Shown one piece after another: positions 9,342 through 32,488 of a stretch of DNA of 64,000 nucleotides. Numbering within the stretch: position 1 is the first letter of the stretch; every line of letters begins with the position of its first letter. Source of the stretch: a virus. A model generated the notes under the pieces. It saw only the letters and a program-made list of their open reading frames with translations, made no database searches and had not been told where the DNA came from. The stretch lies in the IMG/VR virus record IMGVR_UViG_3300037882_002024, positions 7,245 to 71,244 of that record; one strand, given 5' to 3'. Both the position numbers and the translations under genes were made by a program.

Positions 9342-9376
9342 AAAATAGTTGACATTGTGGCCGCAGATGGTATATT
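9340..9376 (+). promoter_or_regulatory. sigma70-type cassette promoter
   Basis: AAAAAATAG-TTGACA(9349)-16-TATATT with TG extended -10. Confidence 0.85.
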
Positions 9377-14366: not shown

Positions 14367-14717
14367 ATGACGACGGCGTTTTTGATGGTTTTGCTTTTGG
14401 CGTTCCCGCCGAAGCCCGATTTGGCGTTTCGCTTCAAGGACACCAATGCCACGAAGCTCATCAGCGCGGCAAGGCTTGTCGGCGTGAAGCTCGATGGCCT
14501 GACCATCCTTGGGAAGCCTCTGGCCATCGAGGCAAAGATTCTCAAGGCCGACATCGAGTTGCGTGGCCAGATTGTGACCGCGAAGCTCGAAGGGTTTGCG
14601 GTCCAAGGTGACTGGCTGCGTGCGATCTACGCAGCCTACAACAGGCGCACGGGCGCGTTCTATATCAAGGCTTATGCCTTCGATGGGGTTGTTGAACTCG
14701 AAGGCATCTACAAGTGA
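14367..14717 (+). CDS. exported hypothetical protein
   Basis: Hydrophobic N-terminal signal-like segment; starts just after box. Confidence 0.6.
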   Translation: MTTAFLMVLLLAFPPKPDLAFRFKDTNATKLISAARLVGVKLDGLTILGKPLAIEAKILKADIELRGQIVTAKLEGFAVQGDWLRAIYAAYNRRTGAFYIKAYAFDGVVELEGIYK

Positions 14718-14724
14718 GGGCGCA

Positions 14725-15009
14725 ATGACTGAGGAAGAGGAAGCGCGCGAGTATGTTATTGGCGTCTCGATTATAGTGGCCATTTCAACGGCCGTCCTGT
14801 GGGCGTTCAAGATTTCGAGCGTTGACGATATTATGCCTTGGTGGATGGCCTCTATTATTGCTATCTTGTGGCTGGCCTGCGTGGGGATTTTCTGGCTGCA
14901 AGAGATTGGCCCAAAGATTTTTTTGTGCTGCGTGCGCTGTGCCGTGGCTTGCTCTGGCGAACAGGTTGCTCGGGCACTCGTTTCGATGGTTCGATCAAGG
15001 AGAGACTAA
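14725..15009 (+). CDS. small membrane protein
   Basis: GAGGG RBS; two predicted TM segments. Confidence 0.5.
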   Translation: MTEEEEAREYVIGVSIIVAISTAVLWAFKISSVDDIMPWWMASIIAILWLACVGIFWLQEIGPKIFLCCVRCAVACSGEQVARALVSMVRSRRD

Positions 15010-15173
15010 TGACCTTGGCGCAAACGGATAACTCTGGATGGTCGTGCGCTGCTGCTGTGATAGTGCTTATCGTCTGTTGTGCGGCGTATTCTATTTACAA
15101 TCGCCGATGCGAGATGAAAGAGCGCACATGGGAAGCCAACGAGAAGCGGCGCAAAGATCGCGGGGCAAAGTAA
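15009..15173 (+). CDS. small single-TM protein
   Basis: TAATG coupling; TM then basic tail. Confidence 0.45.
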   Translation: MTLAQTDNSGWSCAAAVIVLIVCCAAYSIYNRRCEMKERTWEANEKRRKDRGAK

Positions 15174-15179
15174 GTTTAG

Positions 15180-15308
15180 CCCAGAGGCGACGGGGATGGC
15201 GACCCGTTACGATGCCAAGCAGAGATGCACTACGCGATCAGGCGGGCGCTGCAAGTCTGTGCGTTAGCGGGTAAAGGTGCAAGCCGGTTCGATTCCGGCC
15301 CTTTGGGA
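15180..15308 (+). ncRNA. tRNA-like RNA with 8-bp acceptor stem and enlarged central domain
   Basis: CCCAGAGG(15180)/CCTTTGGG(15300) acceptor; D-like arm GACGGG/CCCGTT; canonical T-arm GCCGG-TTCGATT-CCGGC; about 74 nt replace the anticodon/variable arms; intergenic. Confidence 0.6.
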
Positions 15309-15379
15309 TGCCGCAATGACGCGGCGACAGCGCGCAAGCGCTGCAAGCAATATGCGCGCAAGCGCAGAAAGGTTATGCG

Positions 15380-15838
15380 ATGAAGAGTTTTCTGATGGCG
15401 ACGGCAATGCTGCTGTTGGCAGGTTATGCCACGGCACAAGAGAAGCCAGAGCCGAAGTTGGTGCCGATGTTGCCCGCGACGAATCCCGACAAGGTTGAGC
15501 CGAAGGCGCTCGATGTCGTGGGCGTGCAAGTTGTCAATGGCGTGTGTTTGATTTTCGATCCCGCCGACAATGGCGTGTTCCGCGTTCCGGCCACGGACCA
15601 CAAAGGCATCGAAAGCGTGCGCGCGCATATCGCCAAGAAGAAGGCCACGGGCGAAGTGACGGTGTACGTGGAGCAACAAGCGGCCTGCGCGGGCGGCGTC
15701 TGTGCAGTCCAAAGCCAGACCACCTGCGTCGGCGGGCAATGCGGCCAAGTGACGCAGCCTCTCGGTAACATCGTCACGCAGCCGTTGCGTGTGATTCAGC
15801 AAGCATGCCCGAATGGCCGGTGCCCTAACCCGCGCTAA
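15380..15838 (+). CDS. exported protein with Cys-pair-rich C-terminus
   Basis: Signal peptide (ATA-Q); CAGGVC...CVGGQC...CPNGRCP. Confidence 0.65.
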   Translation: MKSFLMATAMLLLAGYATAQEKPEPKLVPMLPATNPDKVEPKALDVVGVQVVNGVCLIFDPADNGVFRVPATDHKGIESVRAHIAKKKATGEVTVYVEQQAACAGGVCAVQSQTTCVGGQCGQVTQPLGNIVTQPLRVIQQACPNGRCPNPR

Positions 15839-16295: not shown

Positions 16296-17408
16296 GTGGT
16301 CATTGATGATTGCGACGCGCAGGGGCTGCTACGGGCCATCAAAGACGATCCGGATGACGACGCGCCCCGTCTGATTTTGGCCGACCGCTACGACGAGCTT
16401 GACTATGGCGCGTCGGCCAATTTCATCCGTGAGTCCGTGGCCGCAGGGCAGGCTAGCCGCGATTGCGCACAGCGATTTGGAGTGTGCGTCTGCGAGACGA
16501 GTGATAGTTGCGCGGCCTGCTCACACTCCACGGCCTTCGTGAAGTTGTGGGGCGATAAGCAACGATGCTTTCACACAGGAGTATGGAACGGCGTCTTCTC
16601 TCCCAACGATACGGTTGCTAGTGAAGGCTCAGCGCAGTGGCTCAGAGACACAATCGGGTGGCGCTTCGACGTGCATGGCAAGACTGCTAATCGGGAGTAT
16701 TGCCACATGAGAGCGCAGGAGATGGCCTACACCGCAGGCAATGCGCCCTATATGCGCGAGAACCTTTCCAATGGCGTGTTGTGCGCCACGGAGCATGACG
16801 CGGACAATACGGTGCTGCACTTGCGTCGAGGCCTGCCTGAGTATCTGGAAGTTAGCCTCAGCCGACTCTATATGCCACCCATCAAAAGGGCGCTGTCGTT
16901 GTTCCCAATCAGGCAAGTGCTGATTGCCGATGCGCGTCCCGTGGTCGTGGGTCGAGCGCGTCGCAGCCGCACCAACGCGGTTAGTGCCGAAGGGTATGCG
17001 CAGAGCGTGATGGCCAGCATGATGGGCGGGCGCTTCGTAACGCGGGAACCGCGAAACTATCCGCCTTCACAGAGGCCACCGGATGCAGTGCATATAGGCG
17101 TTGACGGCGATGTTTACGTGGTGCCCTACGGATGCACTCTGCATCAGCCTTGGCATGCGATTGGCGAAACACCGCAGTATCGTTGGTATCGAGACGACTA
17201 CGCGCTGCTCGGCTCGGGCATGGATGTTGGCGTCACCGCCCGTATCAAACGAGACATCTTCGATGGTCTGCAAGGCGGGCGCAAGATGGATATTCAAGTC
17301 GGGCGTCACATGATTCAGGTGTGCGACTACGGAACGCCATTCGTGGCATATGCAGCCCTGTGCGACGCGGTTTTCTCTATCTGTCAAATGCCCGCTGGAA
17401 CGTCGTAG
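16296..17408 (+). CDS. TIGR02996-like (Gemmata repeat-companion) domain protein
   Basis: N-terminus GLLRAIKDDPDDDAPRLILADRYDE matches the LRAI..xPDDDxPRLxxADWLxE pattern. Confidence 0.8.
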   Translation: MVIDDCDAQGLLRAIKDDPDDDAPRLILADRYDELDYGASANFIRESVAAGQASRDCAQRFGVCVCETSDSCAACSHSTAFVKLWGDKQRCFHTGVWNGVFSPNDTVASEGSAQWLRDTIGWRFDVHGKTANREYCHMRAQEMAYTAGNAPYMRENLSNGVLCATEHDADNTVLHLRRGLPEYLEVSLSRLYMPPIKRALSLFPIRQVLIADARPVVVGRARRSRTNAVSAEGYAQSVMASMMGGRFVTREPRNYPPSQRPPDAVHIGVDGDVYVVPYGCTLHQPWHAIGETPQYRWYRDDYALLGSGMDVGVTARIKRDIFDGLQGGRKMDIQVGRHMIQVCDYGTPFVAYAALCDAVFSICQMPAGTS

Positions 17409-32175: not shown

Positions 32176-32176
32176 T

Positions 32177-32283
32177 ATCCACGAAGCCGGAAACGCGGAC
32201 GCGCGACGTTAGGCACGTTCTGGCCGCAATGCTGGCAGCGGGTTTACGGAACCAATTCGCAGGTGCAACGCCTGCCGTGGATA
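32177..32283 (+). tRNA. tRNA-like RNA (GTT loop) with ~41-nt branched variable region
   Basis: ATCCACG/CGTGGAT acceptor, CCG/CGG D-stem, CGCGC..ACGTTAG..GCACG anticodon-like arm, T-arm GCAGG-TGCAACG-CCTGC. Confidence 0.55.
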
Positions 32284-32285
32284 CT

Positions 32286-32358
32286 GCGCTCTGTGGGCAA
32301 CCGGAGAAGCCGCCCCGCTTAGGTGGGGAGAATGCTGGTTCAATTCCAGCCGGGCGCA
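32286..32358 (+). tRNA. degenerate tRNA-like RNA, anticodon ambiguous (CTTAGG loop)
   Basis: GCGCTC/GGGCGC acceptor with bulge, GGC/GCC D-stem, CCCCG/TGGGG stem with 6-nt loop, GCTGG-TTCAATT-CCAGC. Confidence 0.6.
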
Positions 32359-32366
32359 TTGCAAGT

Positions 32367-32469
32367 AGGGTCGTGCCCGAGTTGTCTAAGGGTGACCGGA
32401 TGCAAGACGCAACCTCTGGCGCACCGGGCCGATAGAGGGTGCGCCACAGGTGCGAATCCTGTCGCCCTG
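32367..32469 (+). tRNA. class-II-like tRNA-like RNA with poorly paired anticodon arm (GCA loop) and long variable stem
   Basis: AGGG/CCCT acceptor extended by GCAAGT/GCTTGC; D-arm TGCCCGAGTTGTCTAAGGG; variable stem TGGCGCACC/GGTGCGCCA; T-arm ACAGG-TGCGAAT-CCTGT. Confidence 0.55.
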
Positions 32470-32488
32470 CTTGCTTTTTAGGTGCATC

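Follow-up and report, generated by a model that had tools for sequence, protein, structure and literature searches.

A 129-nt tRNA-shaped and apparently non-decoding RNA from the protein operon of a tailed phage

A 129-nt element at positions 15180..15308 (+) of a phage genome combines the acceptor stem, D-like hairpin and T arm of a tRNA with a 55-nt irregular hairpin (15211..15265, +) in the place of the anticodon arm. Positions are those of the window, the whole 64,000-nt stretch of DNA that was analysed, which is part of a linear virus record of 87,710 bases that is ~85% complete. The element is real and more than a product of chance, and we hold with moderate confidence that it encodes a tRNA-derived, non-decoding stable RNA, uncatalogued until now and of the kind represented by RNA C and RNA D of phage T4. 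This reading draws on the non-chance character of the top half together with its exact sense-strand placement between genes and without a promoter of its own, as well as on compensatory base pairs in a candidate homologue from a metagenome and on the presence of three more tRNA-like genes in the same phage.

The acceptor stem pairs 15180-15187 (5′ strand, +) with 15300-15307 through 6 Watson-Crick and 2 G-U pairs, giving 8 bp (alternatively, 7 bp and a -1:73 pair) at a pair probability of 0.98-1.0 when the 129-mer is folded alone. Its 3′ strand with the discriminator A (15300..15308, +) is followed by TGC, not by an encoded CCA. The T arm (15283..15299, +) is canonical, with a 5-bp stem made up entirely of Watson-Crick pairs and a 7-nt loop. 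Both features had been described in the initial annotation and stand as described, as does the unpermuted order of the tRNA parts. The 6-bp D-like stem reported there can be drawn at 15189-15194/15203-15208, as a hairpin (15189..15208, +) with possible tandem G-A pairs and a TGGC tip whose GG could contact the T loop, and it appears in the MFE structure; it is nevertheless a minor conformer, with a probability of 0.22 against 0.77 for a rival helix formed by 15202-15208 and 15266-15272, the two folds lying 1 kcal/mol apart. Similarly, D arm and T stem do stand exactly 74 nt apart, as the ~74-nt insert of the first description implies, but the corresponding stretch is normally ~23 nt in class I or 35-40 nt in class II tRNAs, and the real excess is therefore smaller, at ~35-50 nt.

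Acceptor, D and T stems together comprise 19 pairs, none of which is broken. The T arm and an 8-bp acceptor occurred together in one of 600 genomes simulated with a third-order Markov model, and the same two parts plus the D hairpin in none of 600; a looser chance test gave 0.02 occurrences per shuffled genome. Counting against a tRNA-derived stable RNA, positions U8 and A14 and the 15-48 pair are non-canonical, and the folding z-score of the whole sequence is just -1.6. Relative to the canonical tRNA (RF00005), the acceptor stem and T arm are present, and a 5-bp anticodon stem with a 7-nt loop is absent, as is any Rfam or ARAGORN call. Rfam as a whole gives no match at its gathering and E-value thresholds, default ARAGORN does not recognise the 129-nt RNA, and ARAGORN reports it only when introns are allowed and the threshold is lowered.

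The dominant helix of the middle hairpin consists of 15211-15215/15261-15265, 15219-15223/15256-15260 and 15226-15229/15250-15253, with pair probabilities of ~0.9 apart from one end pair at 0.5. Nowhere within 15211..15265 does a 5-bp stem carry a 7-nt anticodon loop, and with this hairpin in the place of the anticodon arm the RNA, as transcribed, can therefore read no codon. The TGCAC/GTGCA helix that had been proposed to close this region turns out to be a minor fold (probability 0.06), and the CT-GCA-AG heptamer that had been pointed out there (15249-15255), a Cys-like loop sequence, is paired inside the helix. The 6-mer core of this heptamer has 82 copies in the genome against ~21 expected (~fourfold), and a Cys reading was rejected, as it needs two removals and its motif is enriched genome-wide. 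The 5-mer GCAAG is ~4x over-represented in the phage genome (355 against 86 expected), where it builds repeated tetraloop hairpins, for example at 15329-15366. Between the middle hairpin and the T arm lies a 17-nt variable region (15266..15282, +), mostly unpaired, with a variable helix at a probability of 0.13 and a 5′ part that can pair with 15202-15208. When the flanking mRNA is folded too, the predicted acceptor helix is lost and the D and T hairpins are kept, which makes the folding of the RNA inside the mRNA uncertain. An alternative local acceptor helix (15272-15277/15300-15305) had a probability of 0.00 alone and 0.15 with flanks and was discarded.

The RNA possibly derives from a class II (Ser/Leu) tRNA. 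The best covariance match among Gemmatales tRNAs is tRNA-Ser(CGA), which agrees at the inner acceptor pairs and at 10 of the 17 variable-region bases, and Leu and Ser tie on top of the parent isotype scores, with Cys and Thr close. Since the scores of Leu, Cys and Thr tRNAs come close to that of the best match, these comparisons suggest a class II origin and go no further.

The record is that of a tailed phage and has genes for a portal protein, a prohead protease and an HK97-type capsid. Its host is probably a planctomycete, judging from a TIGR02996 domain at the head of the ORF starting at 16296 and from capsid relatives that come mostly from planctomycete genomes (e.g. Gemmata, Bremerella, Pirellulaceae). 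The nearest capsids are at most ~60% identical over their length, and there is therefore no close relative to compare. The RNA gene occupies the gap between two protein genes on the sense strand, the stop codon of an upstream 54-aa orphan ORF (15009..15173, +) lying 6 nt before it and the start codon of a downstream orphan ORF of 152 aa, whose N-terminus resembles a signal peptide (15380..15838, +), lying 71 nt after it; homologues were found for neither of the two downstream proteins. Three short GC-rich hairpins, two of them with GCAA loops, occupy 15310..15366 (+), after the RNA and ahead of the next ribosome-binding site, a stretch that holds no U-tract terminator on the + strand. No promoter or terminator belonging to the RNA itself was found, and the nearest strong sigma-70-like promoter upstream (9349..9376, +; 11/12 match, extended -10) is the likely source of a polycistronic transcript that would cover it. 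The 116-aa ORF at 14367-14717, also upstream, matches nothing in NCBIfam or PHROG and has 16 homologues of ~27-43% identity, two of which are large proteins of 819 and 2982 aa; no such RNA was found beside these homologues. Elsewhere in the genome, the ORF at 28134-28937 matches the CBASS inhibitor Acb3 (PF25187, E 3.9e-18), and the phage thus has at least one likely protein counter-defence.

The RNA was called solitary in the initial annotation, which holds for its position but not for the phage, where three aberrant tRNA-like genes (32176-32283, 32286-32358 and 32365-32471, +) close the tRNA cluster after tRNA-Asn and tRNA-Arg. These genes have disrupted or enlarged anticodon arms and are of the same kind as the 129-nt RNA; no family shared with it is detectable. 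Their presence suggests a habit of the phage and not a one-off accident. In two of the three, G takes the place of the second T in the T loop, and an Asn-like or Cys-like anticodon loop is followed by additional sequence on its 3′ side; the gene at 32176-32283 has an 8-bp acceptor.

A metagenome scan with a pattern made of the T arm and its preceding linker gave one full-length candidate homologue, L112:403-530(-), of 128 nt and 32 bits, located in a promoter-led, phage-like tRNA cluster whose other genes include a tRNA-Asn and a further armless tRNA-like gene. Beyond the stretch covered by the search pattern, L112 agrees with the 129-nt RNA in its 5′ acceptor strand and in a D hairpin tipped by TGGC. 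It keeps 7 of 8 acceptor pairs and 6 of 6 D-stem pairs, with one compensatory change in each stem, and one further compensatory pair is found in the T stem. Its middle hairpin is unrelated in sequence and still folds (z -4.1), with no canonical bulge-helix-bulge; covariation in the middle helix was disregarded because the two-sequence alignment had been fitted to the model. Taken by itself, the 5′ similarity has a p of ~0.0013 for a single window, which becomes ~4% across the 33 hits that were inspected, and an ordinary tRNA reached an equal score. In L112, 5 inserted nt also precede the 3′ acceptor strand, and another local helix is favoured. Taken together, these comparisons make homology with the 129-nt RNA fairly probable and, homologous or not, L112 is the same kind of RNA. 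Directly upstream, at L112:540-605 (-), lies a second tRNA-like gene; its acceptor-T branch is ~6/6 and lacks connector bases, and a hairpin with a 4-nt loop stands in for the anticodon arm.

No homologue emerged from 43 related records, from three samples of 151 Planctomycetota genomes or from cultured phages, for which blastn gave T-arm-level matches only. Two covariance models, R1 and R2, run over the related records and the Planctomycetota samples, matched ordinary tRNAs and gave two weak non-tRNA matches that were judged to be chance. Exact and degenerate DNA patterns yielded no homologue in viral contigs (0 matches; one 40-nt minihelix; 21 chance matches), and an acceptor-anchored pattern had no match in metagenomes.

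Phage RNAs that are tRNA-shaped and have no decoding arm have been known since T4 RNA C and RNA D and are still without a function. T4 RNA C (species 1, 139 nt) and RNA D (rnaC/rnaD) are phage-encoded and of similar size to the RNA described here; RNA C is expressed, its function being unknown (PMC9697503, PMC3014915), and in rnaC (NC_000866) a canonical T arm adjoins a short terminal stem, with long unrelated hairpins and no anticodon arm. The 129-nt RNA likewise keeps the tRNA top half, has its anticodon arm replaced and is encoded by a phage. What sets it apart from RNA C is an obvious D-like hairpin together with an acceptor of 8 bp, and while the T4 genes belong to a tRNA cluster it stands alone in a protein operon. 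No homology to rnaC or rnaD is detectable, the comparison score of 15.5 bits (E ~0.09) being driven by the T arm. Non-decoding phage tRNA look-alikes are already known from T4, and what is added here is the 8/5 geometry and the position in a protein operon. A tmRNA was rejected, there being no G3-U70, no tag reading frame and no match to a tmRNA model; the 129-nt RNA has a short 5′ resemblance to tmRNA and no further feature of it.

Among the identities raised in the initial annotation, a tRNA-like non-coding RNA or mimic is best supported, the top half being non-chance and no usable anticodon arm being present. The proposed link to tRNA-Sec and to the selC* and allo-tRNA cloverleafs does not hold. 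The 8/5 acceptor-T branch and a D stem of at least 6 bp with a short GG-bearing tip do recall bacterial tRNA-Sec (RF01852), but that tRNA has a UCA anticodon loop, a paired long variable arm and G73, whereas the 129-nt RNA has A73 (15308), a 1-nt connector and neither a UCA nor a GCA anticodon loop, and scores 13.5 bits against a cut-off of 47. Allo-tRNAs, selC* tRNA-Cys and polycistronic irregular tRNAs share the 8-bp acceptor stem (PMC5389517, PMC7609411), and some irregular tRNA-like genes are found in phages and some are inactive in translation (PMC5389517, PMC7609411). However, selC* and allo-tRNAs have an 8/4 or 9/3 branch of 12 bp (PMC5389517, PMC7609411) and keep the anticodon arm; for selC*, the 5-bp T stem and A73, with U73 and the GCA anticodon missing, led to its rejection. 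The YrlA and other bacterial Y RNAs (RF02553) also mimic tRNA, having D and T arms but lacking an arm for decoding, and RNase P as well as the CCA enzyme recognise at least one YrlA (PMC4201824), but YrlA is circularly permuted to a T-acceptor-D order and lies beside the Ro60 gene (PMC4201824), whereas the order here is normal and no TROVE/Ro60 gene was found in the ~85% complete phage record. A decoding tRNA of the Sec, selC* or allo-tRNA type, or a Y RNA, is thus extremely improbable. A second of the original suggestions was an intron, and the motif for one can indeed be drawn: a 49-nt candidate intron (15218..15266, +) would leave at the canonical 37/38 site through a bulge-helix-bulge, and ligation of the halves would give tRNA-Gly(GCC). 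This bulge-helix-bulge, the sole one in the RNA, has two 3-nt bulges and a 4-bp helix and places U33, GCC and A37 correctly; its layout is matched by 0.02% of shuffled middles under criteria chosen after the motif was seen, and a bulge-helix-bulge with the same flanking helix arises in 1.5% of them. As with archaeal bulge-helix-bulge introns and the small introns reported in Lak phage tRNAs (PMC6784885), extra sequence follows the anticodon, here a Gly-like one, on its 3′ side. Against this, the required conformer accounts for 0.05% of the folding ensemble, and splicing would leave an anticodon stem in which 2 positions are mismatched and the others form 2 Watson-Crick pairs and 1 wobble, unless a 2-nt bulge is admitted; the product falls below the ARAGORN threshold, at 97% of it. 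Unlike the archaeal case, the host is a bacterium with no detectable endonuclease: no splicing endonuclease was found in the phage record or in 151 Gemmatales genomes, and the record, at ~85% completeness, contained no RtcB or PF09414-type RNA ligase and no CCA enzyme. Glycine identity is set by G1-C72, G3-C70 and U73, all missing from the 129-nt RNA, and L112 and the sister tRNA-like genes have no bulge-helix-bulge at that site. Excisions at other places yield 27 products that pass ARAGORN, which is no evidence because 97% of shuffled controls give such products too, and removal of one segment, wherever it is placed, never produces a 5/5 anticodon stem that also has U33 and R37. We consider splicing to tRNA-Gly quite unlikely; were it true, it would mean archaeal-style tRNA splicing in a bacterium.

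Two explanations remain. That the element is a decaying tRNA pseudogene, or a captured relic with an insertion and no present function, is in keeping with its place among orphan genes, the failure of searches to find a close homologue, the largely unpaired variable arm, the loss of U8 and A14 and the weak folding z-score. Random decay would strike stems too, however, and here the stem pairs are all intact while the middle has been rebuilt into a new hairpin; the compensatory changes in L112 speak in the same direction, and we regard a relic as unlikely. A conformational switch or leader, acting in cis on the downstream gene and never released, would make use of the two nearly isoenergetic folds and the refolding seen with flanks, and the element does lie shortly before the next start codon with hairpins after it. 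This is very unlikely, since the candidate homologue is in a tRNA cluster and not ahead of a protein gene, no terminator or ribosome-site-sequestering helix was found, and Rfam gives no leader match.

If the 129-nt RNA is, as we favour, a non-decoding stable RNA, it would be transcribed as part of an early-type operon and excised by host RNase P and RNase Z, enzymes that recognise the elbow and the acceptor/T stack (PMC4919913) and so would act through these parts and not through the anticodon arm. Excision would also part the mRNA of the gene that ends at 15173 from that of the gene that starts at 15380; a host CCA enzyme may then complete the 3′ end, and the RNA may persist as a tRNA-shaped molecule. 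Its most likely single use, though at less than even odds, would be that of a tRNA-shaped decoy occupying a host tRNA-binding protein, for example a tRNA-cutting defence nuclease, to which it would offer no cleavable anticodon loop. Such a role is plausible given that tRNases serving in defence and tRNA countermeasures by phages have been described (PMC13096335, PMC11555353), and the next most likely use is as a pure mRNA-processing signal. The position in a protein operon would allow a processing signal and a trans-acting decoy to be separated in a simple reporter, and a decoy would amount to RNA-based counter-defence. It is an unlikely further prospect that this RNA and L112 are founding members of an uncatalogued family of phage 8/5 tRNA-mimic decoys directed at a host tRNA-binding defence enzyme or, less likely again, that an unrecognised endonuclease in the bacterial host splices a bulge-helix-bulge intron from tRNA-Gly.

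Other reduced tRNA-like forms were also seen. The tRNA minihelices at L005:4335-4375 (-), in L099 (the same sequence) and at L089:65-115 (+) are not in Rfam and have a 7-8-bp acceptor-like stem, an 8-17-nt connector ending in the same 7-nt linker as the element, and a canonical T arm with no anticodon arm. In L140 and L141 (~1440-1530), genes of a planctomycete array have a normal acceptor and T arm and a shortened, irregular D/anticodon region.
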